Shown here: positions 12,799 to 61,488 of the stretch, piece by piece
Numbering within the stretch: position 1 is the first letter of the stretch
How the letters are laid out: each line of letters begins with the position of its first letter
DNA from: an uncultured Bacilli bacterium
Lineage (GTDB): Bacteria > Bacillota_I > Bacilli_A > RF39 > UBA660
Direction: 5' to 3'
Length of the DNA: 64,000 nucleotides
NCBI GenBank assembly: GCA_934098345.1
Contig: CAKONX010000001.1
Location: 9,510 to 73,509, forward strand
Notes under the pieces: generated by a model
Seen by the model: the letters and a program-made list of their open reading frames with translations, nothing else
Databases searched by the model: none
What the model was told of the DNA's origin: nothing
Program-made: the position numbers and the translations under genes

Positions 12799-14391
12799 CT
12801 ATTCCATATTCACATTATTTGTGCCAAATATACTTTCTGCAAGTTGGCACGAATTATCATCTTTATTAATGAATCCTGATTCATCTATTATTTCATATTT
12901 TTTTTCTTTATCGTATGTTGTTAAAAACTTTTTCCATTCTTGTTCATTTAAAAATATAAATTTATATTCTTTATCAGTAACTTTTTTAAATAGTATTTCT
13001 AACTCATGTAATTTTTTATTACCAATAATTTTTGAACTCTCACTTTTTGTGACTAATAAAGCATAAGAATTTGATACTATTTGAGGTACTGAATTTTTCA
13101 CTATATTTCTAAATTCTTTCTCATCATTATTTTCTAAATAATTATAAAAGTTTTTCCAAAGTTCAATAAATGCTATTTTATTTTCTTTACTTGCATTGAC
13201 TAAAGCATTATTAGTTCTAACATCAATAAACTCTTTATCTACTTTATAGTAACCTGAATCATTACTATTTAACATATTGTTTACGTCAATTTTCATGTCT
13301 TTTGAAATTATTTCCCGGGAAATAATTTGATTAATATCTCGACTGCTTAAATTAACTTCATCATCATTAATAAAAGATATTAATTCAAGTTCCAACATTA
13401 AGAAACCATTTGAGTTACTATTTATTTTTCCAAGTAACTCGTTTAATGAATTGATAATTTTTCTTAATTGTTTAAAGGCATTGTTACTTACTCCTTTTTG
13501 TTTAAAGCTAATTGCTTTATTTAAAAAATATTCAATCATTTTATCCAGTAATAGTTTAATATCTATACCGCTCATTTTAATTTCATTTAGTTTTAGAAGT
13601 AAGCTATCTAAATCATTATGTAAGATAGAAACATATATTTTTTCTATATCATCATCTGTTATGGTTCCATAATTTTCTTTAATTATATCTATAGTAATTT
13701 CATCACTTATCTTAGATAGTTGATCTAATATACTTAAAGCATCACGCATACAACCATCTGATAAAAATGCTATTTCCGTTAAAGCTTCTTCAGAACATTT
13801 TATGTCTTCTTCTTTGCAAATATTATTAAGATGTTCCTTAATTTCATTTCTATCAATTCTTTGAAAATCAAATCTTTGGCATCTAGATAAAACAGTTATA
13901 GGAACTTTTTGAATTTCTGTTGTTGCTAAAATAAATATGACATTATGAGGAGGTTCCTCAAGAGTTTTTAAAAAAGCATTCCAAGCACTTGTTGATAGCA
14001 TATGAACTTCATCAATAATATATATTTTGTATTTGCTATTAGTTGGAGCAATATTTACTGAATCAACAATATTTCTTATATCATCAACGCTATTATTACT
14101 AGCTGCATCAAGTTCTATTATATCTGGATTTTGATTAAAATTTTTGCAGTTTTCACATTCTCCACAAGATATTCCATCTTTAGGATTTAAACAATTTAAA
14201 GCACGAGCAAATATTTTAGCTGTACTTGTTTTACCTGTGCCTCTAGGCCCAGTAAAAATATAAGCATGTGCAATTTTATCATTTATAATGGAATTAACTA
14301 ATATTTTTTTTATAGAATTTTGTCCAACCAAATGATTAAAATCACTTGGCCTATATTTTCTGTATAAAACCTTGTAGTCCATAAGATTCAC
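12799..14391 (-). CDS. dnaX: DNA polymerase III subunits gamma/tau
   Basis: Walker A GPRGTGKTS, Zn-binding CGECENC, clamp-loader SRC-like motif. Confidence 0.9.
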   Translation of the reverse strand: MNLMDYKVLYRKYRPSDFNHLVGQNSIKKILVNSIINDKIAHAYIFTGPRGTGKTSTAKIFARALNCLNPKDGISCGECENCKNFNQNPDIIELDAASNNSVDDIRNIVDSVNIAPTNSKYKIYIIDEVHMLSTSAWNAFLKTLEEPPHNVIFILATTEIQKVPITVLSRCQRFDFQRIDRNEIKEHLNNICKEEDIKCSEEALTEIAFLSDGCMRDALSILDQLSKISDEITIDIIKENYGTITDDDIEKIYVSILHNDLDSLLLKLNEIKMSGIDIKLLLDKMIEYFLNKAISFKQKGVSNNAFKQLRKIINSLNELLGKINSNSNGFLMLELELISFINDDEVNLSSRDINQIISREIISKDMKIDVNNMLNSNDSGYYKVDKEFIDVRTNNALVNASKENKIAFIELWKNFYNYLENNDEKEFRNIVKNSVPQIVSNSYALLVTKSESSKIIGNKKLHELEILFKKVTDKEYKFIFLNEQEWKKFLTTYDKEKKYEIIDESGFINKDDNSCQLAESIFGTNNVNME

Positions 14392-14830: not shown

Positions 14831-14850
14831 GTTTCCTCCATATTTATATA

Positions 14851-14930
14851 TAAAAAAAGCACACACAATTAGAGGTTATTATGGCTGCTGTATTCCTACT
14901 CTGACCAGGTTCTAACATAATTGTTGTGCA
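14851..14930 (-). ncRNA. ffs: small (4.5S-type) signal recognition particle RNA
   Basis: Minus strand: GCACAACAAUUAUGUUAGAACCUGGUCAGAGUAGGAAUACAGCAGCCAUAAUAACCUCUAAUUGUGUGUGC + U7; long imperfect hairpin with domain IV-like CCUGGUCAG...GGAA.ACAGCAGCC resembling CCAGGUCAGG..GGAAGCAGCC; sits next to tadA/dnaX as scr does in B. subtilis. Confidence 0.5.
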
Positions 14931-15048
14931 AGTTAATTATAGCAGATTATGAATTGTTAATCAATACATTTTAACCAATTTACAAATATTTAAAATTTGT
15001 TGTAACTAGTGTTGCAGATTTTAATTATTTGCTTATATAATTATTTTA

Positions 15049-15066
15049 ATGTTTCACGTGAAACAT
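15049..15066. promoter_or_regulatory. parS site 1
   Basis: ATGTTTCACGTGAAACAT. Confidence 0.85.
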
Positions 15067-15139
15067 CAAGATGAAAACCGCTTTTTAATATTTTTAAAAT
15101 ATATAACGATTTATCAATTAGTTTATTAATTATAATTCA

Positions 15140-15157
15140 ATGTTTCACGTGAAACAT
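15140..15157. promoter_or_regulatory. parS site 2 (within 22-bp palindrome CAATG...CATTG)
   Basis: ATGTTTCACGTGAAACAT. Confidence 0.85.
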
Positions 15158-15250
15158 TGAGCTTATATATTTTTTCATAATCAGTATTTTAATAACAAAA
15201 TTTATTATTATCATTATTTTTATTGTCTTAATTCAAGTTATTTCTTTTTA

Positions 15251-15268
15251 ATGTTTCACGTGAAACAT
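15251..15268. promoter_or_regulatory. parS site 3 (within 24-bp palindrome)
   Basis: ATGTTTCACGTGAAACAT. Confidence 0.85.
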
Positions 15269-15391
15269 TAAAAAATAATTATATGTTTAATTAATTTAGT
15301 TAATAATTGATAAATACTTATATTTTATTAAAAAATTATTTTAAAAACGAGTAAAATATATAAATTTTAATATTTTTTTATATATATTACT

Positions 15392-15409
15392 ATGTTTCAC
15401 GTGAAACAT
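15392..15409. promoter_or_regulatory. parS site 4 (within palindrome ACTATG...CATAGT)
   Basis: ATGTTTCACGTGAAACAT. Confidence 0.85.
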
Positions 15410-15498
15410 AGTAATATTATTCAGATTCAGTTAAAAATACATTACTTATAATTATTTATAAGTATTTATAATTAGTTTCTATTTATTTTTAAATTTTA

Positions 15499-15516
15499 AT
15501 GTTTCACGTGAAACAT
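15499..15516. promoter_or_regulatory. parS site 5 (within 28-bp palindrome TTTTAATG...CATTAAAA)
   Basis: ATGTTTCACGTGAAACAT. Confidence 0.85.
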
Positions 15517-15599
15517 TAAAATCTTTATAATTTTATTAATACATATTTATATTTTAAATTATTAGCATATAAAATATTTTGTTTTATAATTTTAACTAT

Positions 15600-15617
15600 A
15601 TGTTTCACGTGAAACAT
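15600..15617. promoter_or_regulatory. parS site 6 (within palindrome CTATATG...CATATAG)
   Basis: ATGTTTCACGTGAAACAT. Confidence 0.85.
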
Positions 15618-15696
15618 ATAGCTCTATTTTTTATTAAAATAGAGTGACATTTTTTAAATAACTTTTTTTATTAAAAAAATATAAAATAATTTACTA

Positions 15697-15714
15697 ATGT
15701 TTCACGTGAAACAT
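15697..15714. promoter_or_regulatory. parS site 7
   Basis: ATGTTTCACGTGAAACAT. Confidence 0.85.
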
Positions 15715-15817
15715 TGGATGATTATATAATAACTGTTTTGTCAATGCACAAATTTTAAATTTTTGCGCTGTTAATAATTTCAGATTTTAAATATTTGTCT
15801 TTCAAAAAAAGAAGAAA

Positions 15818-18262
15818 CTATTCAGTTTCTTCTTCAAAGTTTTCTTCCGCTTCTTTATCCAATATACTTATTGTCGAAACATATTGATTATCTTTAAGGT
15901 TAATTAACTTAACACCTTGTGTTACTCTACCTAATTGAGATATTTGATCTATTCCCATTCTAATAGCCATTCCAGATTCAGTTATCATTAATAAGTCTTT
16001 ATCATTGTTTACTATTTTATGAGCTATCATTTCACCGTTTTTATCAGTAACGTTTAAGGCTTTTACTCCTTTGCTGCCACGTTTAGTCATTCTATACTCA
16101 CTTATTAAAGTTTTCTTTCCATAACCAAATTTAGTAACAATTAACAAGTTATCATCATCTTTACCAACTTCCATGCCAGTACATTTATAACCGCCATCTA
16201 AGTTAATACCTTTAACTCCACTAGCAGTTCTTCCCATTGGTCTAACCTCATTTTCATTAAATACAACCATACGACCAGATGTAGATCCAAGAATTACTTT
16301 ATTAATTCCATCAGAAAGTTTAACATCTATTAATTCATCACCATCTTTAAGTGAAATAGCAATCTTTCCACTCGTACGTATGTTTGCATAATCTTCCACT
16401 GCAGTTTTCTTAACTAATCCATCTCTTGTAGCAAAAATTAGATATTTGTTATCATTTTCATTACTAATACTTATAATTGAATTAATTTTTTCATCTTTTT
16501 CAATTTGAAGTAAGTTAATAATTGGTAAACCTTTAGCTTGTCTACTATATTCTGGGATTTCATATCCTTTTAGTCTATAAACTTTACCTTTATTAGTAAA
16601 GAATAGTATATAGTCATGAGTTGACGCATTAACTAGATACTTAACATAATCTTCTTCGTTAGTAGACATTCCTTTTATTCCTACTCCGCCTCTATGTTGA
16701 GATTTAAATGTTGATGAAACGCATCTCTTAATATAACCTTTATCTGATATAGTTACTATTATATCTTCTTCTGGTATTAAGGATTCATCTTCAATATAAT
16801 CTATTGCAGTCATATCAATGTTAGTTCTTCTTTCATCAGCATATTTAGCTTTGATTTCAAGTAATTCCTTCTTGATTATATCTAATACTTTTTGTTCACT
16901 TGCTAAAATTTCTTTTAATTCTTTAATTTGTTCAATTAAATCAGCAAGTTCATTCTCAATTTTATCTCTTTCTAGACCTGTTAATCTACGAAGTTTTAAT
17001 TCTAGAATTGCATTTGCTTGAATTTCATCAAATCCAAATCTTTGAATCAATTTTTCACGAGCAATTACATCAGTTTCTGCTTCTTTTATGATTTTTATAA
17101 CTTCATCTATATTATCAAGAGCAATTTTATATCCTTCTAAAATATGAACTCTTTCTTCTTTTTTTCTAAGATCAAATTTAGTTCTTCTAATTATAACTTC
17201 TTTTTGGAAATCAATATATTTAGAAATAATTTCTTTAATGTTTAAAACTTTTGGAGTTCCATTATCTATCATTAAGAAAATAATACCAAAAGTAGATTGT
17301 AATTGTGTATGTTTATATAAATTGTTTAAAACTACTTGTGGATTTGCCTCTTTTTTAAGAGTAATAATTATATTAACACCCTTTTCAAGACTTGTTGCAT
17401 CATGATAATCTGCAATTCCATCTAAAATTTTATCTCTAACTAATTCACCTATTCTAGTTTTAAGATCAAAAGTATTGATTCCATAAGGAAGTTCTGTTAT
17501 TACAATTCTATTTTTTCCATTATTTTCATCAATTTCAGCTTTACAACGAATAGTAATTGTTCCTCTACCAGTTTCATAAGCTTTTTTTATACCACTGTTA
17601 CCTAAAATAATTCCACCAGTTGGAAAATCTGGGCCTTTCAACTTTTCCATAATTTCTGGAATAGTTATTTCATGATTATCTATATATGCAACGCATCCAT
17701 CAATTACTTCACCTAAGTTATGTGGGGGTATATTAGTTGCCATACCAACGGCAATTCCCATAGTTCCATTAACTAAGATATTTGGAAATCTTGAAGGTAA
17801 AACTTCTGGTTCCATTTCAGTTTCATCAAAGTTAGGAATCATATTTACTGTTTCTTTGTTTAAGTCACGAAGCAATTCTAATGAAATTTTAGCAAGTCTA
17901 GATTCGGTATAACGCATTGCTGCTGCTCCATCGCCATCCATATTACCAAAGTTTCCGTGTCCATCAATTAGCATATGTCTATAACTAAAATCTTGAGCCA
18001 TTCTAACCATAGCTTCATAAATTGAAGAATCACCATGTGGGTGATATTTTCCCATAACGTCACCAACAACACGTGCACATTTACGATATTGTTTATCTGG
18101 TGTATAACCATTTTCATACATTGAATAAAGAATTCTTCTATGAACTGGTTTTAAACCATCTCTTAAATCTGGTAAAGCTCTGGCAACTATAACACTCATC
18201 GAATAATCAAGAAATGATTCTTGAACTTCTGTAACAATATTATTTTGATTAATCTTATCCAT
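15818..18262 (-). CDS. gyrA: DNA gyrase subunit A
   Basis: 814 aa; QRDR region ...[17 protein letters not shown]..., active-site Tyr region AAAMRYTE, C-terminal beta-pinwheel repeats. Confidence 0.95.
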
Positions 18263-21380: not shown

Positions 21381-21836
21381 CTACTTAATTAAGTTATTTT
21401 TCCCACTTATTAGAGCTAATCTTAAAGCTCTGTTATATTGATTATTTAATATATAAAAAGATATTTCTAAATAAAGAAATGTTCCATTCTTAAATTCAAC
21501 TATTCCATTACCAGTTTTACCATCTTTTAATATATTTTTTACATTGATGAGATTAATCCACATACAAGACCTTAATCTTGGAGAAGATGTTGGAAATAAT
21601 AGTAGGCAATTCTTTTCACTAAGCATAATTGGTGTCTTATAAGAAGAACCAATTGAATAAATACTACCTTCTACCCTTCCATCCATACTAGATCCGTACA
21701 TTAAAGCATTCTTCTTAATAACAACTTTTGGACTATTATCTATATAAAATTGATTATCTTCTTCAATAATAATAGACTTTTTTGGCCCATTTGGAAGTAT
21801 TGCATATGTATCATCTGTAATCATATATTCTTTCAT
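21381..21836 (-). CDS. comK: ComK-family competence transcription factor homolog (short, 151 aa)
   Basis: Collinear with B. subtilis ComK: YAILP, FYI...P..VI, YGSSMDGRVEGSIYSI (cf. FGSSYAGRKAGTYEV), KTPIML...LLLFPTSSPRLRSCMWINL (cf. KPPIMV..IFLFPTLSSTRPQCGWISH), FKNGTFLYLEISFYILNNQYNRALRLA (cf. FSNGKTMELPISYNSFENQVYRTAWLR). Confidence 0.7.
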   Translation of the reverse strand: MKEYMITDDTYAILPNGPKKSIIIEEDNQFYIDNSPKVVIKKNALMYGSSMDGRVEGSIYSIGSSYKTPIMLSEKNCLLLFPTSSPRLRSCMWINLINVKNILKDGKTGNGIVEFKNGTFLYLEISFYILNNQYNRALRLALISGKNNLIK

Positions 21837-23044: not shown

Positions 23045-23186
23045 ATTTATTCCTTCTTTCTTTTATATATATTATTTTTATTATTAGTGTTGAAATTGTT
23101 GAAAACTATCATTTACACTTTATTTTCCACTAATTTTACATTTATTTATTAATATTTTAGTGTTAATAAGTTGTAAGTTATTAACA
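23045..23186. promoter_or_regulatory. dnaA-dnaN intergenic DnaA-box cluster / probable DNA-unwinding part of bipartite oriC
   Basis: tandem gttgaaattgttgaaaac (reverse TTTTCAACA-type boxes), very AT-rich. Confidence 0.4.
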
Positions 23187-24539
23187 TTAATTCATGATTT
23201 TATCTTTTATTTTATTAATTTCTTCTTTTAATTCATCATCTTGTTTTAAACTATCAGCTATCTTATCACAAGCATGAATTACAGTAGCATGATCTCTATT
23301 AAATTCCAAACCAATTTTATCAAGTGTTTCTTCCGTTGTCATTTTACATAAGTAAATGGCTACTTGCCTTGCATGATTTATGATTGCCGTTCTTTTCTTA
23401 CTTTTTAATGATTCAACTGTTAAATCATAATATTCAGCAACAGCTTTCTGTATTTTAGTAACATTGTTAGTTATATATACTGAAGAACCTATATAATCTT
23501 TTAACGCATCTTTTGCAAATTCCAGATTAATTTCTTTAGGTGAATACATTGCTGTTACTGCATATAACCTATTTATAGCACCTTCTAAGTGTCTAACATC
23601 GTTTTCACAGTTGTTTGCAATATATTCCAGTACTTCAGGAGCAATCATTTTACTTACTTCATGTCCTGCAATTTTATTTTTTACAATTTTTAAACGAAGT
23701 TCATAATCTGGAGGCATTATATTAACTGTAAGTCCCCAAGTAAACCTTGTTCTAAGACGTTCTTCCAGTACTTTTAAGTCATCTGGACTTCTATCTGATG
23801 ATATTATTATCTGTTTATTTAAACTATATAACTCATTAAATGTGTTAAAAAATTCATCCTGAGTCTTATTAGCACCACCTAAAAATTGAATATCATCAAT
23901 TATTAATACATCTACACTTCGATATTTTTCTTTAAAATGAGCAATTAAATCTAAGTTGTTATCATCTTTTCTATTAATTTGAGTAAAATCTGTTATAAAT
24001 CTCTCACTTGTAACATATAAAACCGATTTATTTGAGTTATCAGTAACAAAATTACCAATAGCATGCATTAAATGTGTCTTCCCTAACCCGCTTTTTCCAT
24101 ATATAAATAAGGGATTATAAAGTTTTCCAGGTTGTTCAGCAACTGATAAGCCAACTGTTTGAGCTAATCTATTAGAATTACCAACAACAAAATTATCAAA
24201 TGTATAATTTGGATTCAAATTACTACAATTATTATTCTTAAATTTAGGCATATCCATTATAGGTTCTTCTATAATGACCTCTTCTTCTTTTATATCTTCT
24301 TTGCAAATAACTTCAAAATCATATTCTTCATTACTTACTTCTTTTAAAACATCTTTAATAATGTTTTCATAATAATTATTTATATAATCTTTTTTATATT
24401 TATTAGCAGCACATATAGTTAAAGTATGATTATCCAAACTAATTATATCCGCATCCTTAAACCAAGTGTTAAATGAAATATTATTTAACTTACTGCTAAG
24501 AACATTTAAAAAAGTATTCCAAAAACCTTCCTTATCCAT
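23187..24539 (-). CDS. dnaA: chromosomal replication initiator DnaA
   Basis: 450 aa; AAA+ Walker A GKSGLGKTHLMHAIGN, Walker B LIIDDIQF, C-terminal DnaA-box-binding HTH (KRTAIINHARQVAIYLCK). Confidence 0.95.
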   Translation of the reverse strand: MDKEGFWNTFLNVLSSKLNNISFNTWFKDADIISLDNHTLTICAANKYKKDYINNYYENIIKDVLKEVSNEEYDFEVICKEDIKEEEVIIEEPIMDMPKFKNNNCSNLNPNYTFDNFVVGNSNRLAQTVGLSVAEQPGKLYNPLFIYGKSGLGKTHLMHAIGNFVTDNSNKSVLYVTSERFITDFTQINRKDDNNLDLIAHFKEKYRSVDVLIIDDIQFLGGANKTQDEFFNTFNELYSLNKQIIISSDRSPDDLKVLEERLRTRFTWGLTVNIMPPDYELRLKIVKNKIAGHEVSKMIAPEVLEYIANNCENDVRHLEGAINRLYAVTAMYSPKEINLEFAKDALKDYIGSSVYITNNVTKIQKAVAEYYDLTVESLKSKKRTAIINHARQVAIYLCKMTTEETLDKIGLEFNRDHATVIHACDKIADSLKQDDELKEEINKIKDKIMN

Positions 24540-24599
24540 TTAACCACCCTGCTTTACCATTAAAATAATCAACTTTCACATTTGATTTTTCTAACTAAA

Positions 24600-24830
24600 T
24601 AAATTGTAAATCACTTTTGTTGAAAAATAAAGTAATAAATTAAAAAATCATCTTTTCAACACGTTATTAACAAACTTATTAACAATTCGTATACTATAAT
24701 AACGTAAAAAAATAGACTTTTCAACAGTTTCAACAAATTAATTAAAAAAGTTTTCAATTGTTAAAAAAAGTTATTAACAATCAACGTTGAAAAGTTGAAA
24801 ACTAAGTTTTTTACCTAAAAATACGTAAAA
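24600..24830. promoter_or_regulatory. oriC region: cluster of at least 7 DnaA-box-like 9-mers TTTTCAACA / TTATTAACA upstream of dnaA
   Basis: tgttgaaaa (24616), ttttcaaca (24653), tttcaacag/tttcaacaa (24719-24736), ttttcaatt (24751), gttgaaaagttgaaaac (24786-24802), plus repeated ttattaacaa. Confidence 0.55.
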
Positions 24831-24896
24831 ATAATTGACTTCTAATTTCTATTATTATATAATAACTTTGCTTTTGAGATGTGGAGGTGGAAAACA

Positions 24897-31006: not shown

Positions 31007-32134
31007 GTGAATAGAATGAAAATGGAATCTCAAATACAATTAATAAATATGGATGAAATAATACCAAATAGATTTCAACCAAGACTTGTGTTTTCTGAAG
31101 AAGGTTTAGATGAATTAGCTCAATCAATAAAGGAACATGGAATTATCCAACCTTTAGTATTAAGAAGAGTAGGTAATAAGTTTGAAATAATTGCTGGTGA
31201 AAGAAGATTTAAAGCTGCTGAACTTGCTGGACTTACAGCTGTTCCTGCTATTATAACTGATTTAGATGACAATGAATCAGCCGAAGTTGCTATTATTGAA
31301 AATACGCATAGAAGAAACTTATCAGCAATAGAAGAAGCAAAATCATATAAAAAACTTTTAGATCGTAAATATGTAACCCAAGATCAATTAGCAAAAAGAC
31401 TTGGAACTAGCCAATCTACACTTGCTAATAAAATAAGATTATTAAGTCTTGATCCTCAAGTCCAAGATGCCTTAATGAAAGAAAAAATAAGTGAAAGACA
31501 TGCAAGAAGCTTACTTAAAGTAACAGATAAATTAAAACAAGTAGAATTATTAAATAGAATCATTAATGAAAGATGGACTGTTAAAAGACTTGATGATGAA
31601 ATTCAAGAAATACTATTGAGTTACCAAAAAAATTCCAACGTAACTGGTGGAATAAACGCTAATAGCCAAATAGATGTTAATGTTAATAATATAATAAATA
31701 ATTCTAATGATATTGAACCAGTTAAGGAAGAAGAAGCCAATTATTCATATACAAATGATTTTTCTAATAAAAATAATGTTAAAAAGTCATTATTTTTCAA
31801 CAGCTTAGAAAATGAAACCGTAAATATGAATCCTGATCCATCAATGATAATAAATCCATTTAGAAATGAATCACTAACAAATCCATTACTTGAAGATTTA
31901 GATGTAATTGATATTGACGAAGAAGAGGAGCAACCTGAAGAAGTTAAGAAGGAAGAAACACCAACTGTTACTTATCATGAACCAGTTGTTGATACAAGTG
32001 AAGAAATAGAAAGTGAATTAAAGAAAATAATTGGACTTGCGAATAAAAGGAAACAAAAAGTAAAATTTGAAGAATTTGACTTTGGCGATATATATCAAAT
32101 AGTTATTAAAGTGGACAAAAACGACAAGCAATAG
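31007..32134 (+). CDS. parB: ParB/Spo0J/Noc-family CTPase with long acidic C-terminal extension; no adjacent ParA
   Basis: ParB box II GERRFKAAELAG, HTH (QDQLAKRLGTSQSTLANKIRLL); 375 aa with 150-aa low-complexity acidic tail. Confidence 0.8.
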   Translation: MNRMKMESQIQLINMDEIIPNRFQPRLVFSEEGLDELAQSIKEHGIIQPLVLRRVGNKFEIIAGERRFKAAELAGLTAVPAIITDLDDNESAEVAIIENTHRRNLSAIEEAKSYKKLLDRKYVTQDQLAKRLGTSQSTLANKIRLLSLDPQVQDALMKEKISERHARSLLKVTDKLKQVELLNRIINERWTVKRLDDEIQEILLSYQKNSNVTGGINANSQIDVNVNNIINNSNDIEPVKEEEANYSYTNDFSNKNNVKKSLFFNSLENETVNMNPDPSMIINPFRNESLTNPLLEDLDVIDIDEEEEQPEEVKKEETPTVTYHEPVVDTSEEIESELKKIIGLANKRKQKVKFEEFDFGDIYQIVIKVDKNDKQ

Positions 32135-46276: not shown

Positions 46277-46395
46277 ATGCATATAAGTCTCATTATATAT
46301 CTGACATTCTTTCATAATTAGAAAAAGATATATTTATATAGCGTATAATCGCGATTTATATGATATAATTAATAATGTATACAGGAGGTTTATAT

Positions 46396-47508
46396 ATGGC
46401 ATATAGAAAGTCTTTTATTAAGTGGGCAGGAGGAAAAGAAAAAGAGCTTCCAATTATATTAAATAATTTACCTAAAAAAATTGACAGATATATAGAACCT
46501 TTTGTTGGCGGAGGAGCAGTATATTTTAATATAAATAAATCAAAGTCAATTATCAATGATAAATCAACTGAATTAATACTTTTATATAAAATGATTAAAT
46601 CTAAAAATAAATTTTTTGTTAAAAGCATTAACGAAATAAATAATAATTGGTTAGACCTTGAAAATATTGTTATTAGTAATTCGTCAGAACTTATAAATAT
46701 ATATGACGATTATAAAAATGATAAGAATACTTTAGATGAATTAATTGATCTATTTATGTCTAATCATAAAAAAGAAATAGCAAAATTGTTGAAAGATGAT
46801 ATTGATATAAATTTATATAATTTTGAAATTGAAATTAAGAAAAATTTAAAATCAAAATTAAGCAGAATGCTTAAAATAGAGAACATAAGGAATGAGATGT
46901 CTGAAGAAGATATAATGAGTAATATTGAAACCGCATTTAAAAGTGCATACTATATGTATTTTAGATATTTATACAACAATAGAAAAAAGTTAAAACTAAG
47001 TGATCCATTTTTTGCAGCCGTATTTTATTTTATTAGAGATTATTGTTATGCGTCTATGTTTAGATATAATTCCATTGGTGAATTCAATGTCCCTTATGGT
47101 GGCATAAGCTATAATAGAAAAAACTTTAAGAAGAAAATTAAATATATTACATCGGAAGACTTAAGTGAATACATGAAAGAAACAGAAATTTATAATATGG
47201 ATTTTGAAGACTTTTGTAAATCTATAGAACTAAATGAAAATGACTTTATGTTTTTAGATCCTCCTTATGATACAGAGTTTTCTACTTATGCAAAAAATGA
47301 TTTTGATAAAGCTGATCAAATAAGATTAGCTAACTTTCTGAAAAATACCAAAGCAAAATTCATGTTAATAATAAAAAATACTGATTTTATTTATAATCTA
47401 TACAAAGATAAAGGATTTAATATTAACTCATTTGACAAAAAGTATTTAGTAAGTTTCATGAATAGAAATGATAAAAATGTTGAACATTTGATAATTACAA
47501 ACTATTAA
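46396..47508 (+). CDS. Dam-like (alpha-class) DNA N6-adenine methyltransferase
   Basis: Motif [11 protein letters not shown], motif IV FLDPPYD; D12-class order; extended -10 TGATATAAT upstream and AGGAGG RBS. Confidence 0.85.
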
Positions 47509-47525
47509 TAATTAGGAGGTAAACG

Positions 47526-48680
47526 ATGAATGATAAAAACTCTATAAAAAGTACAATTGTTATAGCAATAAATAATATACTATCTTCGAGGAAAGGATCC
47601 AAATATGCTGACATTCAAGAAATTTATAAAGAGGTAGCTTTATTAAAAGGTGTTGAAATAAGTGAATCTTTAAAAGCGCAAGTACGTGGCAGACTACAAG
47701 AACATTGCTCACAGTATAAAAACTATACTGGACCAGATGATTTGTTTGAAACGAAGGCAATTAATTCTGGATGTTGGAAAAATAAAATTACAGGTGAGAA
47801 GAGTATAAGAAAGCATATTATATCATTAGTTAACGAGTTTCCAGGAATCGATATTACTCAATTAAAAGAATATATATTAACATCAATGAAGGATGAACTT
47901 ACTGAGGCCGATAAAATAGAAAGCAAAACGAGACCTGGAGAAATGAAGGTAGAACAAATAATAAGAAATCTCGTTTCTCATAGAGATAGTTATAAAGATG
48001 TTATTGAATTTAAAAAAGAAAATGAAATCACAAGACTTTATCCTAAACATGTAGAGGCAGGAGATGATGAAGATACTTTAGTTTCAATAGATGATGAAGT
48101 AATTGAAAAGGTATTAAATAAAGAAGAAGAAAAGCCAATTATTGATCAAGAAGAAACTAAACTATTAACATTAGTTGAAATACCTAATAAAAAAAGTAAA
48201 AATAATCTTTCAAAAAAAACATATATTAGAAAAAGTGATTTTGAAAGAAAACTACAAGAATATAATAAAAAAATGGATAACGGATATGTTGCAGAGGGAT
48301 TAGCATATCAACATGAAATAGATAAACTAGTCTCAATGGGTAGAAAAGATCTGGCTGAAAAAGTAAGATGGGTATCCAGAGATGATGGCGATGGATATGG
48401 TTATGATATTCAATCTTTTGATACTATTAATGGTGAAGATAAGATAATATACATAGAAGTCAAAAGTACATCAGATAGTATTAGTTCGGATTTTGAAATG
48501 TCGGCAAATGAAATTAAATTTGCTGAGGAACATATAGATGAATTTAAAATTTATAGAGTATATAAGAATAAAAATGTTGCAAATTTTTATATAATAGAAT
48601 CTGGAAACGACTTAAAAAATGATTTTGAGATTGAACCGACGAAATTTAAAGTTTCTATTAAACCAATAGAGAAAGAGTGA
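47526..48680 (+). CDS. DUF3883 (NO VEIN C-terminal-like) PD-(D/E)xK nuclease-fold protein; putative restriction/effector nuclease
   Basis: C-terminal ...DGDGYGYDIQSFD...IIYIEVKSTSD... (D...EVK signature) followed by YRVYK; co-transcribed 18 nt after the MTase (AGGAGG RBS). Confidence 0.55.
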   Translation: MNDKNSIKSTIVIAINNILSSRKGSKYADIQEIYKEVALLKGVEISESLKAQVRGRLQEHCSQYKNYTGPDDLFETKAINSGCWKNKITGEKSIRKHIISLVNEFPGIDITQLKEYILTSMKDELTEADKIESKTRPGEMKVEQIIRNLVSHRDSYKDVIEFKKENEITRLYPKHVEAGDDEDTLVSIDDEVIEKVLNKEEEKPIIDQEETKLLTLVEIPNKKSKNNLSKKTYIRKSDFERKLQEYNKKMDNGYVAEGLAYQHEIDKLVSMGRKDLAEKVRWVSRDDGDGYGYDIQSFDTINGEDKIIYIEVKSTSDSISSDFEMSANEIKFAEEHIDEFKIYRVYKNKNVANFYIIESGNDLKNDFEIEPTKFKVSIKPIEKE

Positions 48681-48697
48681 GTAATCGCTCTTTTTTA
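48674..48697 (+). terminator. intrinsic terminator after MTase-nuclease operon
   Basis: AGAGTG-agtaat-CGCTCT + T6. Confidence 0.5.
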
Positions 48698-48751
48698 TTT
48701 ACTATATTTTGAGAATATAGTAAATAAAAAAGAAACTACATAGTTAAAATA

Positions 48752-48780
48752 TTGACAATATATTGTCCATATAGTAATAT
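48752..48780 (+). promoter_or_regulatory. promoter of GHKL operon with overlapping 18-bp palindromic operator
   Basis: TTGACA-17-TAATAT; TTGACAATA|TATTGTCCA inverted repeat overlaps the -35. Confidence 0.5.
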
Positions 48781-48813
48781 ATATGCTATATTTAAAACGA
48801 AAGAGGTATAATT

Positions 48814-49035
48814 ATGGAAAATGAAAAAGTAAAAGAGGAAAGATTTGTTAGAATCGCTGAAAAAAGAACAAACGTTATTTTAGATACACTTAGGTTGCTA
48901 GGAAATTGTTCTAATACTAATAATTACAAATATAGTGATCAACAAGTAAAAAAAATATTTAGTGCAATAGAGCAAGAATTAAAAAATACAAAGATTAAAT
49001 TTGATAAAAAGGAAGAAAAGTTTACTTTAAAATAA
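48814..49035 (+). CDS. small basic protein, first gene of GHKL operon (possible regulator)
   Basis: 73 aa, AGAGG RBS, ends 12 nt before the GHKL gene. Confidence 0.4.
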   Translation: MENEKVKEERFVRIAEKRTNVILDTLRLLGNCSNTNNYKYSDQQVKKIFSAIEQELKNTKIKFDKKEEKFTLK

Positions 49036-49047
49036 GGCGGTATAAAT

Positions 49048-51000
49048 ATGACTGAAATGAAATGGGAATTTCCTTATACTAATGGAGGAGAAGGAGACGG
49101 ATTTAATGATTCTGGTATTCAATCTTTTAAAGATGATGCGTATACATCTTTAGCAAGAGAAATATGTCAGAATTCATTAGATGCTGTTGATGAAGGAAAG
49201 AAAGCAATTGTTGAGTTTAAAAGCTTCGATCTTGAGAGAGAAAAATTTCCCGATTATGATAGTTTTATAAATGTAATAACTCACGAAGTTGAATTTTCCA
49301 AAAAAAATTATAAAAATGTAGATACACCATTAAAATTTTATTCAGAAGCATTAAAAACATTAAAGTTAGATAAAATAAAGTGTTTAAGAATTAGTGATTT
49401 TAATACATGCGGTTTAACAGGAAGTGACAAAAAAATAAATTCAAACTGGTCCAATTTGGTAAAGAATAAAGGATTCAACGATAAACCATTAGATGCAGTT
49501 GGAGCTTTTGGAATTGGAAAAAATGCAACATTTGCTTGTTCAAAACTGAATACTGTATTTTATAGTACTATAAGTAATGATGGGTTGAAAGCCATTCAAG
49601 GTGTTGCCAGATTATCTACATACGAAACCGAAGATGGTAATATGACACAAGGTACAGGTTTTTGTGGAAAAATTGTTATTAACAATAATGGTGTTACTAA
49701 TCTTATGCATATAGAAGATTATTATAGTTTGGATCATGATTTTATTAGAAATGACAATGACTATGGTACAGATATATTTGTTCTTGGTTTCCATGATGAT
49801 AGTAATGATAAAATTAGTGACCTTGGTGATAATTGGGCAGTTTTAATAACCGCTTCACTAATAGACAACTTTCTTTTATCAATTGTAGAAGGCAAGTTAG
49901 AAATTAGAATTAATGATATTATTTTAAACAGTGAAACTATAGAAGACATTTTTAATGATATTAATTCATCTAGGCCTGATTTGTTTAATGAGTATACTGC
50001 TGAATATTTTAATGTTTTACTAGGAGATGATACAGAAAATACTGTTAATGATAAAATATCTATGTTTGAACCTGATGATGTTGAATTAATTTTAGCTTTT
50101 AATCCAAATTATCATAACAAGGTATCGATTAATAGACATACTGGAATGAAGTTGTTTGATAAAGACAGATTAGGAAATCAAGCTTTTTACAGTGGTATAC
50201 TTGTGTTAAGGGGCAAGAAAGTTAATGCTTACTTTAAAACAATGGAAAACCCAAATCACGATGGTTGGAGTTATAAAAGAGTTGGAGCTCCACAAGATGC
50301 GTATAAAATGTATTCTAAGTTATTTGACTTCGTTAGAACCAAAATAAGAGAATTTGCAATAGAAAATACTCCAGATTCTTTGGATGCACAAGGTATTGGT
50401 GAATATCTTGCAGATGAGTTTGATATAGGAAATAATAATTCTGAAAAGGAAGATATAAATAACGATATAGTAGAAGAAATTGAAGTAAAAGAAAAGAAAC
50501 CAATTTCTTTAACTCAAATTACAGTAGATGATCCAGAAGCTAATGATCCTTTACAAGTTTTAGGAAAAGATAGTGAGGACGGTGAACTTGAAGGAACTAT
50601 ACCTAGAGGGAATTTAAATGAGACTGATGATGGAAGTGGTACAAAAATTGAAGGGGACAAAGGAAATGGCGGTTTTTACTTTGATTCTCTTGGTAATGTA
50701 AGAGCCAATAAAATTAGAAGTTATAATACTGGAGAACAATATAACCTAATATTTTCTGTACCTACGAATGTGGATGAATTGGTAATTGATGTTCAGATAG
50801 CCGGTGAACAATCAAATTATAAACCGGTAATCAAATTCGCTAATATGAAAGGTGTAATAATAAGTAATAATTTAGAAATAAAAGATAATCAAATTAAATT
50901 AAAAAAGGTTAAAGCAAATAATAATTATAACGTTAGTTTTAAGTTGAGCGATGATAAAAAGTGGTCATTGGAGGTAAATTTATATGAGAATAAAAAGTAA
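49048..51000 (+). CDS. GHKL (Bergerat-fold) ATPase, paraMORC/HATPase_c_3-like, 650 aa
   Basis: N-box REICQNSLDA (E...N..DA), G-box NKGFNDKPLDAVGAFGIGKNATFA, GT-lid QGTGFCGK; C-terminal about 350 aa with no recognised domain. Confidence 0.6.
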   Translation: MTEMKWEFPYTNGGEGDGFNDSGIQSFKDDAYTSLAREICQNSLDAVDEGKKAIVEFKSFDLEREKFPDYDSFINVITHEVEFSKKNYKNVDTPLKFYSEALKTLKLDKIKCLRISDFNTCGLTGSDKKINSNWSNLVKNKGFNDKPLDAVGAFGIGKNATFACSKLNTVFYSTISNDGLKAIQGVARLSTYETEDGNMTQGTGFCGKIVINNNGVTNLMHIEDYYSLDHDFIRNDNDYGTDIFVLGFHDDSNDKISDLGDNWAVLITASLIDNFLLSIVEGKLEIRINDIILNSETIEDIFNDINSSRPDLFNEYTAEYFNVLLGDDTENTVNDKISMFEPDDVELILAFNPNYHNKVSINRHTGMKLFDKDRLGNQAFYSGILVLRGKKVNAYFKTMENPNHDGWSYKRVGAPQDAYKMYSKLFDFVRTKIREFAIENTPDSLDAQGIGEYLADEFDIGNNNSEKEDINNDIVEEIEVKEKKPISLTQITVDDPEANDPLQVLGKDSEDGELEGTIPRGNLNETDDGSGTKIEGDKGNGGFYFDSLGNVRANKIRSYNTGEQYNLIFSVPTNVDELVIDVQIAGEQSNYKPVIKFANMKGVIISNNLEIKDNQIKLKKVKANNNYNVSFKLSDDKKWSLEVNLYENKK

Positions 51001-51841
51001 TAGGTTATTTACTTATCCAGTATTAACATCAATGAATGATGACTATATTGAAAGTAGTTTTACAACATCAATTAAAGTATTGAAAAGGGTAAGAACATTA
51101 CAAATATCAATAGATTGTGAGATAAAGAATGATGAATTACAAAGCTTACTTGATCAAGATAAGGCAGAGGTAATATGTCATATAGAATGTTCTAAAACTA
51201 AATTGAGATATATTCAAAAACTAAACCTTGGTCATAATGAATTTGAAATTGAAAGTAAACTAATAAACTTAAATATAGAATTAGTAACATTTGTAATAGC
51301 AAAAGAAAATATTGAAGGTTTTAAATCTACTAAATTTAATAGAGATTACAATAATGCTACATTTAAAATTGACAGAGGACAAATTCTTGCTATTGCAAGT
51401 CAAGTTGATATTCCAATAATAAAGGATATTTATGATCTATCAGATGTTCCGTCAATTATAACAATTGTACCTTCAGATATAAAATATATGATGGTAAATA
51501 TGGACGATCATAAAATTATTATTAAACTTCCTAAGGATGATTTTAATAATTACGCATCTTTAGGAAAATCTATTGGGTCACATACACCAATATTGCACTC
51601 TATGGTTATTGTTCCAGCTTTAACTCATGTAATAGATGAATTAATAAAGTGTAACGATGATTTTGAGCAATATTCGAATTATAGATGGTTTAAGGTATTA
51701 AAAGCAAAAGTTGAAACGCTAAAATATGAATTTTCGAGTGATTCAATGTTAAGAGTTGGATCATTGCAATTAGTACAAGAAATATTGGAAAATCCTTTAA
51801 GCCTAGCTTTAGACAAACTTCCAAGAATGAAGGTGGAGTAG
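50984..51841 (+). CDS. hypothetical protein, translationally coupled to GHKL ATPase (17-nt overlap)
   Basis: 285 aa ORF, no recognisable motifs. Confidence 0.5.
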   Translation: MRIKSNRLFTYPVLTSMNDDYIESSFTTSIKVLKRVRTLQISIDCEIKNDELQSLLDQDKAEVICHIECSKTKLRYIQKLNLGHNEFEIESKLINLNIELVTFVIAKENIEGFKSTKFNRDYNNATFKIDRGQILAIASQVDIPIIKDIYDLSDVPSIITIVPSDIKYMMVNMDDHKIIIKLPKDDFNNYASLGKSIGSHTPILHSMVIVPALTHVIDELIKCNDDFEQYSNYRWFKVLKAKVETLKYEFSSDSMLRVGSLQLVQEILENPLSLALDKLPRMKVE

Positions 51842-51842
51842 T

Positions 51843-52595
51843 ATGAAATTAAAATTTTTAAAAACTAATTCTTTATCAATTTTAAAAGAAAACATTAAAG
51901 ATAATATTAAACATTATTCGGATGCTAATTCAAATTGGATAAAGAACTCAACAAATGATGAAGTTAATTATATTGAAAGTAAATTAGATGTTCCTGATTT
52001 CGAATTGATAATATCAAATACTCCTGAAAAAGATGATTTTTTAAATATAAAATTACTATATTCAAATCTGATTGAATTAACCGATAGCCAAGCCGGAGAT
52101 GAAAGATTATGGGCTGGATTGTGTCATAATCAATTCTGGAATTATATGATTAATAGATGGCCAGTAGCAAAGGCTAAAGATGAAGTAAAATTTATTAAAA
52201 AAAATTACTTCTTTGCTCATGGTGAAAAAAGATCTTTAATGACAAATGGACTTGCAAGGTTATGGTGGATTGGCAGATTAACATACGATAAAGATAATCC
52301 TAATAATAATCCATTTGAATTAACTGAATATTTATGTAAGGATTTAAATGGTAGAGGTTTTCCTCTGTTTGGTAGTAACTTTTCAAATAATGACAAAATA
52401 TTAAAAATATTTCTATATACTTTAAAAAATTATGAAGAAAGTAATAACATTAAGTTAGATAGAAATACAGAATTCTTAGAGATGATAAAATATGTTAATA
52501 AGCTTAGTGGAAAGATTTTAATAGATTATTTATCAAATAACGAATTAAGAAAACTTATACTTGATGAAGTAACAAGAATTGTATCTTTAAGATAA
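51843..52595 (+). CDS. hypothetical protein, last gene of GHKL operon (1-nt gap)
   Basis: 250 aa; Trp-rich conserved-looking block DERLWAGLCHNQFWNYMINRWP...LARLWWIGRL. Confidence 0.5.
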   Translation: MKLKFLKTNSLSILKENIKDNIKHYSDANSNWIKNSTNDEVNYIESKLDVPDFELIISNTPEKDDFLNIKLLYSNLIELTDSQAGDERLWAGLCHNQFWNYMINRWPVAKAKDEVKFIKKNYFFAHGEKRSLMTNGLARLWWIGRLTYDKDNPNNNPFELTEYLCKDLNGRGFPLFGSNFSNNDKILKIFLYTLKNYEESNNIKLDRNTEFLEMIKYVNKLSGKILIDYLSNNELRKLILDEVTRIVSLR

Positions 52596-52686
52596 AATTT
52601 CTAAAAAAAATAATGTTCTTGTATCTAGATTAAATAATGACTTTTTGTAAGAAAATTGGTACAATAAAAATAGAAAGAGGTAGATT

Positions 52687-52932
52687 ATGAGAGAAGTACA
52701 AATTAATCGTGTTTATAAACATTTTAAAGGAAATTATTACATAGTTGTAGATATAGCAACTCATTCAGAGACAAAAGAACAATATGTTGTCTATAGACAA
52801 TTATATGGAGATGGAAAATTATGGATTAGACCACTTGAAATGTTTTTAAGTGAAGTTGACCATGAAAAATATCCAGATGTAAAACAAAAATATAGATTAG
52901 AACTTCAAGAAATAGAGAGTGTAGTTAAATAA
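52687..52932 (+). CDS. DUF1653-like small protein
   Basis: 81 aa; YKHFKGNYY...YRQLYG pattern typical of DUF1653. Confidence 0.4.
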   Translation: MREVQINRVYKHFKGNYYIVVDIATHSETKEQYVVYRQLYGDGKLWIRPLEMFLSEVDHEKYPDVKQKYRLELQEIESVVK

Positions 52933-52951
52933 TCTAGAAAAGAGAGGTTAT

Positions 52952-53728
52952 ATGAAAAAGAATAAATTAATAGTAATAATTTTAATTATATTAGTTATAG
53001 TTTTATCTGTAGTTGGATTTATATTTATTAAAGATAAAGATACAAAAAAGTTGGAAACAAAGAAAGAAACATATTATGCATATGTTAAAATAAATCCATT
53101 AGTAAAACTTACATTTGATATAAATTATGATTGTAGAGATAAAGATAATTGTAATGTTAAAAGTAATAAAGTAACTAATGTTGATTTACTAAATGAAGAT
53201 GCTAAAAGTATATATACAAATTTAAGCTATAAAGATAAAAAACTAGAAGAAGTAGTTGCATCTTTAATAGATGTTGCAGATGAAAATAATAAAGATATAA
53301 GAAATGTATCATTATCTTCAACTTATGAATTTAATAAAGATGAATTAATAAAAACTATATTATCATCTTTAAAAACTACTAAAAATGTTGAAATAAATTA
53401 TAATTATCAAAAAGAAATAGATGAAAGTAGTATGAATGAAACAATGCCAGTTCCAACAACTACTCAAACTACAACAACGACTACAATTAAGACAACAAGT
53501 AAATGTGTTAGTAAGAAGTTTAAAAAGAAATATACATATGCATATAAAACAAAAGATGAATGTAAAAAAGAGGGAAATAATGCTTTTAATAATATAACTG
53601 ATAATGTTGATGATAGTATTTTCTCTTATGGATGTGAAGAAGTAAAAGATGACTGTGGAGATACTTGGTATGGAGTAATATTCTATAAATGGTCAGAAGA
53701 AAAAGGAGAATATCCATATTATTACTAA
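52952..53728 (+). CDS. secreted/membrane-anchored protein with Thr-rich linker and Cys-containing C-terminal domain
   Basis: N-terminal TM, PVPTTTQTTTTTTIKTTSK linker, 5 Cys in last 80 aa. Confidence 0.45.
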   Translation: MKKNKLIVIILIILVIVLSVVGFIFIKDKDTKKLETKKETYYAYVKINPLVKLTFDINYDCRDKDNCNVKSNKVTNVDLLNEDAKSIYTNLSYKDKKLEEVVASLIDVADENNKDIRNVSLSSTYEFNKDELIKTILSSLKTTKNVEINYNYQKEIDESSMNETMPVPTTTQTTTTTTIKTTSKCVSKKFKKKYTYAYKTKDECKKEGNNAFNNITDNVDDSIFSYGCEEVKDDCGDTWYGVIFYKWSEEKGEYPYYY

Positions 53729-53792
53729 AATTAGCTGATTTGCTAATTTTTTTATTTTTTTATGTTATACTTAAATCATAAGAGGAGAGTTT

Positions 53793-54878
53793 ATGAAAAA
53801 GAAAATTATTTTAGTTTGTACAATAGTAGTATTAAGTTTAGTAATCACGTATTTGTTTTTTAACAAGAAAAAGGATGTAGTTAATATGACTGATAATATA
53901 TATATCGTTCCAACATTTAATGATGAAATTAAAAGTGATACAGCTTGGTGTGCAACATTTAATTTAATATGGAATGACTTAAAAAATGATATAGTAAAAC
54001 AAGATATTAAGTTTAAAGATAATGATGAATTTGTTAATAATTTAAATAAAGAATTATTTAAAGAAAGTGATATATCAGATGAATATTATTATAAAGTATA
54101 TGGAAAGAAAACTATTAAATTAAAAAATGAAATAGAAAAAAATATAAAAGAAAAATTTAATCAAACAAGTGATATATTAGATAAATTTGATTGGAGTGAA
54201 GAGGCTTTAGATAAAGGCTCAAGTGATTTTGAAAGATATATTTTTTATACAATGTTATATCGTGAATTTAAATATAATACTAAATTTGTAGAATTAGATA
54301 AAGATAAATTTAATGATACAGAAAATGTTAAATATTTTGGTGTTAAAGATAATAAAGAATCTTATATAGATCAAATACAAGTAATTTATTATAATAATGA
54401 AAATGATTTTGCAATAAAATTAACAACAACTAGTAATGATGAAATTATTTTAAATAAAAATCCAAAAGGAAATAGTTTTAAAGATATTTATAACAACGTT
54501 ATTGATAATGGTTCAAAATATAAAGGAAATAAAGATTTTAGTAAACAAGATAACTTTAAAATGCCATATATAAATTTAAATGTTTTAAAAGAATATAAAG
54601 AATTAGAAAATCAAGAATTTTATGATGTATATAATAATAAATTAGTTATAGATAAAGCATTACAAACTATAAAATTTGAATTAAATGAAACTGGTGGAAA
54701 AATAAAGAGTGAAGCTGGAATGGATGTTGTAAAATTCTCATCTTTAAATCCTAAAGATGAATCACGCAATTTTAACATTGATTCAACTTTTGCAATATTT
54801 TTAAAAGAAGCAAATCAAGATAAAACATATTTTGCAGCTAGAATTGATGATATAAGTAAGTATCAAGAGGTGAGATAG
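53793..54878 (+). CDS. secreted serpin-like protein (divergent)
   Basis: signal/TM; C-terminal FNIDSTFAIFL approximates serpin signature (F.ADHPFLF.I), hinge-like NETGGKIKSEAGMDV, length 361 aa. Confidence 0.35.
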   Translation: MKKKIILVCTIVVLSLVITYLFFNKKKDVVNMTDNIYIVPTFNDEIKSDTAWCATFNLIWNDLKNDIVKQDIKFKDNDEFVNNLNKELFKESDISDEYYYKVYGKKTIKLKNEIEKNIKEKFNQTSDILDKFDWSEEALDKGSSDFERYIFYTMLYREFKYNTKFVELDKDKFNDTENVKYFGVKDNKESYIDQIQVIYYNNENDFAIKLTTTSNDEIILNKNPKGNSFKDIYNNVIDNGSKYKGNKDFSKQDNFKMPYINLNVLKEYKELENQEFYDVYNNKLVIDKALQTIKFELNETGGKIKSEAGMDVVKFSSLNPKDESRNFNIDSTFAIFLKEANQDKTYFAARIDDISKYQEVR

Positions 54879-55143
54879 GCCATTTACAACTTCAAATAAT
54901 TATGATACTTTAAATATAATGATGAGAGATATATAAGAACGTGGTTTTTGATTATAATGCCTTTAAAGCTCTTTCTAAATAAATTTTATCACATTTACAT
55001 GTCCCTTTTTATTTAGTGTGTATTTTAAAGGTATTATAATCTGGGATTACCATTTTATATTATTTACAATTTATCTTTTCTCCCTTGCACCATACTCACC
55101 TTTGCTATATAATGATAGCACAACGATGAGGAGATATGAGTTT

Positions 55144-60948: not shown

Positions 60949-61488
60949 ATGGAATTAAAAGGAAGTAAAACAGAACAAAATTTGATGACTGCTTTTGCAG
61001 GAGAAAGTCAAGCAAGAAACAAATATACATATTTTGCAAGTAAGGCTAAAAAAGACGGATATGAACAAATTGCAGCTATATTTGAAGAAACTGCAAACAA
61101 TGAAAAAGAACACGCAAAATTATGGTTTAAAGAATTAAATGGAGGAGAAATTTCTTCTACATTAGAAAATCTATATGCAGCTGCTGAAGGTGAAAACTAT
61201 GAATGGACTGACATGTATGATGAATTTGCTAAAACTGCTCGTGCTGAGGGCTTTGATAGAATAGCTCAACTATTTGAAGGTGTTGCCGAAATCGAAAAGG
61301 AACATGAAGCTAGATATAGAAAATTAATTGAAAACATTGAAGGTGGATTAGTATTCTCTAAAGATGGTGATCGTATTTGGAAATGTAGAAACTGTGGACA
61401 CATTTGTGTTGGATCATCTGCTCCAGATGTTTGTCCAGTTTGTAATCATCCACAAAGTTTCTTCGAAATTAAAGCAGAAAATTATTAG
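60949..61488 (+). CDS. rbr: rubrerythrin
   Basis: ferritin-like di-iron ExxH motifs ([16 protein letters not shown]) plus C-terminal rubredoxin CRNCGH...CPVCNH. Confidence 0.85.

Follow-up and report, generated by a model that had tools for sequence, protein, structure and literature searches.

The parS array and its surroundings

The window, by which we mean the whole 64-kb stretch of DNA that was analyzed, has a GC content of 25%, carries the sporulation genes spoIIR and spoIID, and encodes proteins whose exact matches come from human gut metagenomes, Hadza samples among them; among named relatives, those closest to it are MAGs that carry the label 'Bacilli bacterium' or 'Erysipelotrichales bacterium'. 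Between the gene for the small SRP RNA and gyrA lies a block in which the 18-bp palindrome ATGTTTCACGTGAAACAT is found seven times, these being all of the exact copies present in the window. The features of this region are the following:

14845-14938, minus strand: ffs, the small SRP RNA (Rfam, 56 bits)
14936-14964, minus strand: promoter-like site TTGATT-17-TGnTATAAT immediately preceding the SRP RNA
14939-15817: gene-free, AT-rich block of about 880 bp around the array (scans for ORFs, Rfam families and DnaA boxes)
15049-15714: parS array of seven copies of the 18-bp palindrome ATGTTTCACGTGAAACAT (exact matches)
15049-15066: parS site 1, exact match; the palindrome reaches 1 bp past the 16-mer
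15140-15157: parS site 2, exact match; extension of 4 bp, TTCAA-core-TTGAG
15251-15268: parS site 3, exact match; extension of 7 bp
15392-15409: parS site 4, exact match; extension of 9 bp, ATATTACTA-core-TAGTAATAT
15499-15516: parS site 5, exact match; extension of 7 bp
15600-15617: parS site 6, exact match; extension of 5 bp
15697-15714: parS site 7, exact match; extension of 2 bp
15803-15833, minus strand: terminator-like hairpin of gyrA, AGAAGAAACT-GAAT-AGTTTCTTCT followed by T7 (read from the sequence), overlapping the gyrA stop codon
15818-18262, minus strand: gyrA, the neighbor of the array

The start-to-start distances between consecutive sites are 91, 111, 141, 107, 101, and 97 bp. 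All seven sites contain the 16-bp core TGTTTCACGTGAAACA and match the palindrome consensus TGTTNCACGTGAAACA. The initial annotation had described seven identical copies of the parS consensus spaced 91-141 bp apart between the SRP RNA and gyrA in a region devoid of reading frames, and this description is borne out by the exact-match count, by the seven perfect consensus matches and by the absence from the block (14939-15817) of any ORF of more than 30 amino acids; several of the short ORFs that do occur there begin at an ATG within parS. Chance does not account for the array: dinucleotide-preserving shuffles contained on average 0.09 matches to ATGTTTCACGTGAAACAT with up to three mismatches, none of 100 shuffles contained seven, and the number of exact 18-mers expected in a window of 25% GC is 2e-6. 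No further site matching TGTTTCACGTGAAACA with two or fewer mismatches was detected in the 64 kb, nor was any parS-like site found in the 10 kb past each window end, as represented by contigs with identical flanking proteins; window and flanks together amount to about 84 kb of DNA of this species.

The block is bounded on the gyrA (upstream) side by the terminator-like hairpin and on the other side by the promoter-like site of ffs. Within it the spacers between the sites have no mutual similarity, so that only the 18-bp core repeats, and TRF detected no period of the length of the array in the window. With values of 91-141 bp, the spacings do not fall on multiples of 10.5, and they give no indication of helical phasing of the sites. 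Searches for Rfam RNAs in the block returned only sub-threshold noise from miRNA models, by which an RNA gene was ruled out, and a second origin or DnaA-box cluster was likewise ruled out as no DnaA boxes occur in the block.

The origin of replication was placed as follows:

24560-24860: oriC region in the dnaA-rpmH spacer, containing variant DnaA boxes TTTTCAACA (GC skew and boxes)

The switch in GC skew, the position of dnaA (23187-24539) and the TTTTCAACA boxes at 24618-24726 place oriC at approximately 24.6-24.8 kb, about 8.9 kb from the array, in agreement with the distance of 9 kb given in the initial annotation. It should be mentioned that the canonical DnaA box TTATCCACA is missing from the spacer between dnaA and rpmH, and that TTTTCAACA is repeated there in three exact copies plus variants (24618-24726; also at 23097); TTTTCAACA presumably represents the DnaA box of this lineage.

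Other genes of the window were recorded in passing. A ComK-family gene (21381-21836, minus strand) is located between dnaN and recF, a placement which is kept in relatives down to 53% identity of the Noc-like protein described below (L134, L141, and L142). The segment at about 46375-54900, containing a D12-class adenine methyltransferase, a NOV_C-domain protein, DUF6339 and several ORFs without a family, is a probable variable defence-type island; its counterpart varies among contigs that have the flanking rubrerythrin gene in common (L138-L140). A pair of neighboring UvrD-like helicase ORFs is found at 61485-62855 and 62908-63963 (minus strand). The latter is cut off by the window end and represents only the C-terminal portion of a UvrD-family (AddA-like) helicase of 1032 aa, which explains why the exact-protein look-up of this fragment came back empty.

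Conservation of the array and clustering of parS in other genomes

Conservation was addressed by a scan, with each species represented by a single genome, for pairs of perfect parS sites lying 86-116 bp apart. Among the loci listed were 15 from low-GC uncultured Bacilli with the same gyrA/ffs/tadA/dnaX neighborhood, whose GyrA proteins are 60-72% identical to that of the window in 14 of the 15 cases (the piece from L065 is without gyrA). Each of these relatives carries 3-11 perfect parS sites in or beside this neighborhood, in most of them in the interval from gyrA to ffs/tadA; the main array of L051, with ten sites, is located between dnaX and tadA. Comparison with related genomes had been proposed in the initial annotation as a check on the conservation of the array, and an array at the equivalent position in 15 relatives supports it. 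This positional equivalence indicates that the sites are under selection, and since the spacers of the window are without similarity only the 18-bp core appears to be constrained. All 83 exact parS sites of the clade are flanked by A...T. Contigs of the same species (L007 and L008) are 100% identical over the block and are therefore uninformative on conservation.

Two of the relatives carry arrays that are plain tandem repeats, with a unit of 109 bp in 5.2 copies (91% matches) at L092:2719-3279 and a unit of 55 bp in 9.4 copies (88% matches) at L051:5382-5896. These two loci appear to show the birth of an array by amplification of a unit. With respect to assembly, the metagenome contigs L010, L011, and L013 of this species all end 11 nucleotides before the first parS site, and L009 likewise ends at the edge of the array. 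The array thus seems to fragment short-read assemblies, which should serve as a warning that arrays of this type can break up metagenome assemblies.

In the window as well as in the clade, the symmetry of the parS palindromes continues for 2-9 bp past the 18-mer, and the extending sequence differs from site to site. It averages 2.85 bp in length, as compared to 1.29 bp when sequences were shuffled within each genome, and none of 2000 shuffles reached 2.85; a weaker extension is also present in 280 sites from other lineages. We suspect that this extension derives from quasi-palindrome correction by template switching, seeded by the perfect core, with cruciform formation or extended ParB contacts as alternatives.

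The scan also bears on how unusual such a dense cluster is. At least 120 loci in many phyla contain a perfect parS pair 86-116 bp apart (among those listed are Actinomycetota, Pseudomonadota, Bacillota, Patescibacteria, Bdellovibrionota, spirochaetes, and others), and at least 23 loci hold chains of five sites or more in which neighbors are no more than 300 bp apart. Dense arrays among the loci listed include ten sites at 55 bp (L051), eight at 46-47 bp (L033), nine in L121, eight in L049, and one case of nine sites within 0.7 kb. Tightly clustered or single parS sites have been reported as the usual bacterial state, scattered sites being confined to a few lineages which include the Bacillus-type Bacilli, and clustering has been argued to minimize collisions of SMC (10.1101/2020.12.04.411900). 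In Corynebacterium glutamicum ParB and SMC are loaded at ten parS sites spread over 35 kb, of which nine are intergenic, although a single parS is enough (PMC7083940). Of the initial annotation's view that a dense array stands apart from the scattered parS sites of Bacillota, the contrast with B. subtilis holds; the array is not exceptional, given the number of dense-pair loci and clustering as the norm. It differs from the B. subtilis layout and not from bacteria in general, and is an ordinary kind of chromosomal centromere. We found no published description of the array for the uncultured, low-GC gut Bacilli of this clade.

The Noc-like gene and the Noc-binding sites

The initial annotation had taken a gene at 31.0 kb for a ParB and had noted, as a puzzle, that it has no ParA partner. 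This gene, and a Noc-binding site (NBS) which was found close to the array, are located as follows:

31007-32134, plus strand: Noc-like ParB-family gene (comparison of domains, profiles, structures, and residues)
13309-13324: perfect NBS TATTTCCCGGGAAATA inside dnaX, exact 16-mer match 1.7 kb from the array

The gene encodes a protein of 375 amino acids with intact ParB_N and HTH_ParB domains and a GERR box; its true start is likely the ATG at 31016 (MKMES...). The best solved relatives are the Noc proteins of Geobacillus (7ng0, E = 5e-58) and B. subtilis (7ol9, 3e-51), with Spo0J (6sdk, 8e-44) behind both, and the NCBIfam Noc model TIGR04285 scored 265.9 bits, which is under its cut-off of 315, as compared to 176 bits for the generic ParB model. 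The gene directly follows rsmG, the position also occupied by noc in B. subtilis. The specificity of ParB and Noc is set by residues 173, 179, 184, and 201, of which the combination RTAG of ParB reads parS and QKKR of Noc reads NBS; Q173 reads A1, R201 reads C6, and one lysine at either 179 or 184 suffices (Jalal et al., 2020; PMC7383237). When aligned to Noc of B. subtilis, with identical spacing, the Noc-like protein reads Q173-K179-S184-R201. An alignment of 15 family members (53-81% identity) shows no variation at Q173, K179, or R201, and position 184 is S, T, N, or Q in the family and not K; the supplement to the deep mutational scan of Jalal et al. contains no QKSR entry. As a control the four positions were read in 58 ParB-family ORFs of the compared loci: 49 had the R..G motif, all of them from parS-pair loci of other lineages, and Q..R proteins occurred only as a second paralogue (L118, L122, and L095) or as Noc-like orthologues (L134 and L135).

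The Noc-like protein is missing the N-terminal amphipathic membrane-targeting helix of Noc. Its MKMES start aligns to about residue 25 of Noc, and an upstream extension of the ORF is impossible because rsmG ends at 30976. The family comprises more than 120 homologues of 360-400 amino acids and occurs in numerous MAGs of uncultured Bacilli and of Erysipelotrichales, some of which at least come from gut samples. An acidic low-complexity linker of about 120 amino acids precedes the C-terminal domain and contains a conserved motif at residues ~255-290 (K-K-x-S-L-F-F-N-N-L-E-N-E..N-M...F-G-F-N-P-F); the possibility that the segment SLFFNxLENE represents a relocated amphipathic membrane helix was rejected on account of a hydrophobic moment of only 0.05-0.34. 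Two small ORFs follow the gene, one without a Pfam match and the other resembling the delta subunit of RNA polymerase by eye (N-terminal domain, then acidic C-terminal tail); as this likeness is a resemblance only, both were rejected as partners.

Structural relatives, profile scores, specificity residues, the rsmG neighbor and the NBS at 13309 agree in indicating that the 31.0-kb protein is most likely a Noc-type paralogue, predicted to bind NBS and not parS. The partnership with the array implied initially is therefore not upheld, and the puzzle of an orphan ParB dissolves with it since the gene had been mis-assigned. More generally, this corrects a mis-annotation, as a ParB-family gene following rsmG and carrying Q173/R201 is of the Noc type and not a parS partner.

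The NBS lies within dnaX (12799-14391, minus strand). With 1.4e-5 exact NBS expected per window, it is the sole NBS in the ~84 kb of DNA of this species, and NBS in dnaX are also found in L063 (4859), L065 (~2700), and L125 (2841 and 2970). Its translation reads ISREI in the window and, in a different frame, YFPGN in L065, which argues that it is kept as DNA and not as peptide. Among the loci compared, only those of this species and of the related low-GC genomes contain exact NBS. Counts over 191 kb of clade DNA gave 83 pure parS sites, 15 pure NBS and one hybrid, and the existence of two discrete classes points to two binders with separate specificities. In the relatives, the gyrA/ffs/tadA block contains perfect NBS interleaved with perfect parS sites:

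L056:860-1575, interleaved parS and NBS
L125:4910-5710, interleaved parS and NBS
L068:1720-1850, interleaved parS and NBS
L065:540-680 and 1290-1560, interleaved parS and NBS
L061:1755, interleaved parS and NBS

Some of the gaps between the two kinds of site measure only 7-9 bp (L056, L065, and L068), and three parS-NBS pairs are present in L056. NBS also occur within extended palindromes that are specific to the site, e.g., cctaaaat-NBS-attttagg. Of all the aspects described here, it is only this interleaving that we consider moderately novel.

Searches for a cognate ParB and ParA gave uniform results. No ParB homologue besides the Noc-like gene was found by phmmer against all stop-to-stop ORFs of the window, no deviant Walker A motif of ParA occurs in the window ORFs, and Pfam identified no canonical ParB or ParA in 30 window ORFs (all ORFs from 42 kb to the right end and selected ones around the array, noc, and dnaN). 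Neither protein is encoded in the 10 kb beyond either window end (span from -10 kb to +74 kb), and the Noc-like homologues at 64, 53, and 54% identity have no soj-spo0J beside them, the order rsmG/noc-like being kept. It is highly probable that a canonical, parS-binding ParB of the R..G type is encoded elsewhere in the genome. In S. aureus and S. pneumoniae, ParB-parS-SMC systems do not require ParA to function.

On these grounds we favor, with a probability of roughly 85%, a reading in which the block is the main and possibly the only parS cluster of the chromosome and loads a canonical R173/G201-type ParB, whose binding is predicted. A less likely arrangement is that the block of this clade would be a dual loading platform, where canonical ParB would load at parS and an anchor-less, Noc-derived CTPase clamp at NBS retained next to the array (as in dnaX) or mixed with it, or, in an extreme version, where canonical ParB would have been lost and the parS sites taken over by a non-canonical binder. 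If the dual platform were true, the Noc lineage would have been re-purposed from nucleoid occlusion to origin organization. The co-location of NBS and parS with an anchor-less Noc-like family has more potential than the array alone, and could constitute a natural system of two paralogous CTP-dependent clamps which share one loading zone.

That the 31.0-kb protein itself binds parS and works without ParA, as the initial annotation implied, is improbable. It is true that its gene is the only one of the ParB family in the 64 kb, that the protein has an intact ParB_N domain, an intact HTH and a GERR box and that no other ParB is found nearby in this species or in the compared relatives. These points are opposed by the invariance in its family of the residues that form the NBS-specific pattern, by an R at position 201 where dual-specificity variants mostly have T or S (PMC7383237), by the perfect NBS in the genome and in the clade, by the near absence of parS/NBS hybrids and by the R..G motif of every one of the 49 parS-adjacent ParBs with a readable motif in other genomes.

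Function of the array and comparison with known systems

As judged from its sequence and position, the array is a genuine functional parS region, intergenic, proximal to the origin and conserved in place. ParB, as outlined in PMC7053999 and PMC8299390, nucleates at parS, binds CTP, closes as a clamp and slides off. In the favored reading, dimers of an R173/G201-type ParB (Spo0J) encoded outside the window would settle on each 16-bp palindrome, convert into CTP-bound sliding clamps and spread across the origin-proximal region. The presence of seven sites within 0.67 kb would multiply the loading rate at one point of the chromosome and produce one ParB focus per origin together with one entry point for SMC-ScpAB, and a single entry point would avoid collisions of condensins loaded at distant sites. 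The position of the block outside the transcription units of gyrA and ffs, where it is probably untranscribed, may keep loading free of interference by RNA polymerase. As to its history, the most economical account is that a unit of about 100 bp with one parS site would have been duplicated in tandem, after which the spacers would have decayed while selection held the 18-bp cores perfect; such a history would explain the spacing of about 100 bp without helical phasing.

Two further explanations do away with a centromere function, and we consider both very improbable. The array could be a selfish or neutral repeat, either a tandem repeat or a palindromic mobile element, with no more than a likeness to parS, for which one can cite the plain tandem repeats of L092 and L051 and the frequent breaks of assemblies at the array. 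Such a repeat does not sit well with a core that is the universal parS consensus and the only conserved part among unrelated spacers, with zero further copies in ~84 kb, with the use of one chromosomal neighborhood throughout a deep clade or with the lack of any plasmid or phage match. The palindromes could alternatively be operators for a transcription factor, or hairpins (terminators or cruciforms), controlling gyrA or ffs, a view to which their symmetry beyond the ParB core and the terminator-like appearance of three sites in a crude scan lend something, but the gyrA terminator and the ffs promoter are both outside the array, most sites have no T-tract, seven sites over 670 bp are unlike a promoter-proximal operator and no RNA family matches.

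Returning to the reading of the block as a chromosomal ParB-loading cluster, the plasmid-type centromere to which the initial annotation likened the array is an analogy only, as the spacers are unrelated, parAB is not adjacent, and BLAST found no plasmid or phage records resembling the block. An iteron centromere of the sopC kind was rejected for the window, where the array has no direct repeats of a whole unit, although such repeats are present in L092 and L051; a centromere of a mobile replicon was rejected as well, since the array is flanked by gyrA and ffs and ParA and ParB are not nearby. As it stands, the array is a further case of a parS centromere clustered tightly near the origin, from a lineage without an experimental model, which in itself matters little; it is useful as a landmark for annotation.

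A first comparison is with parS and ParB (Spo0J) of B. subtilis, which share the palindrome class TGTTNCACGTGAAACA, origin-proximal sites and a host of the class Bacilli with sporulation genes. In B. subtilis the parS sites are single and scattered across the origin-proximal region, whereas here seven perfect sites are contained in one intergenic block of 0.67 kb, and soj-spo0J is not located beside noc. The clusters of C. glutamicum, Caulobacter, and Pseudomonas are alike in that several consensus parS sites form one origin-proximal and mostly intergenic cluster; that of C. glutamicum serves ParB nucleation and SMC loading, with the extra copies providing robustness, but the present array is about 50 times denser (one site per ~100 bp) and is found beside gyrA and not near parAB. 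The dense arrays of other genomes have the same core in 5-10 tightly placed, apparently non-coding copies. In other lineages the ParB gene, where found, is only a few kb from the sites and of the R..G type, in contrast to the clade of the window where the array lies beside gyrA without a nearby ParB gene. Should the genome truly be without ParA, S. pneumoniae and S. aureus would be possible functional analogues, as ParB at origin-proximal parS recruits SMC in these species; the absence of ParA here holds for ~84 kb. The plasmid centromere sopC of F consists of 12 repeats of 43 bp next to sopAB. Centromeres of this type resemble the array in having several identical palindromes for a ParB-family protein at short, regular spacing and one partition complex, and differ from it in being true tandem repeats, whereas the array has unrelated spacers, a chromosomal locus with a conserved position and no adjacent parAB. 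Finally, the 31.0-kb gene shares with the Noc-NBS system of Bacillus and Staphylococcus the Noc lineage, the rsmG neighbor, Q173/K179/R201 and an exact TATTTCCCGGGAAATA in the genome, and departs from it by having no membrane helix, a residue other than K at 184, the ~120-aa linker and a score below the NCBIfam cut-off, while the NBS of the clade adjoin or enter the parS block instead of being scattered as those of Noc are elsewhere.
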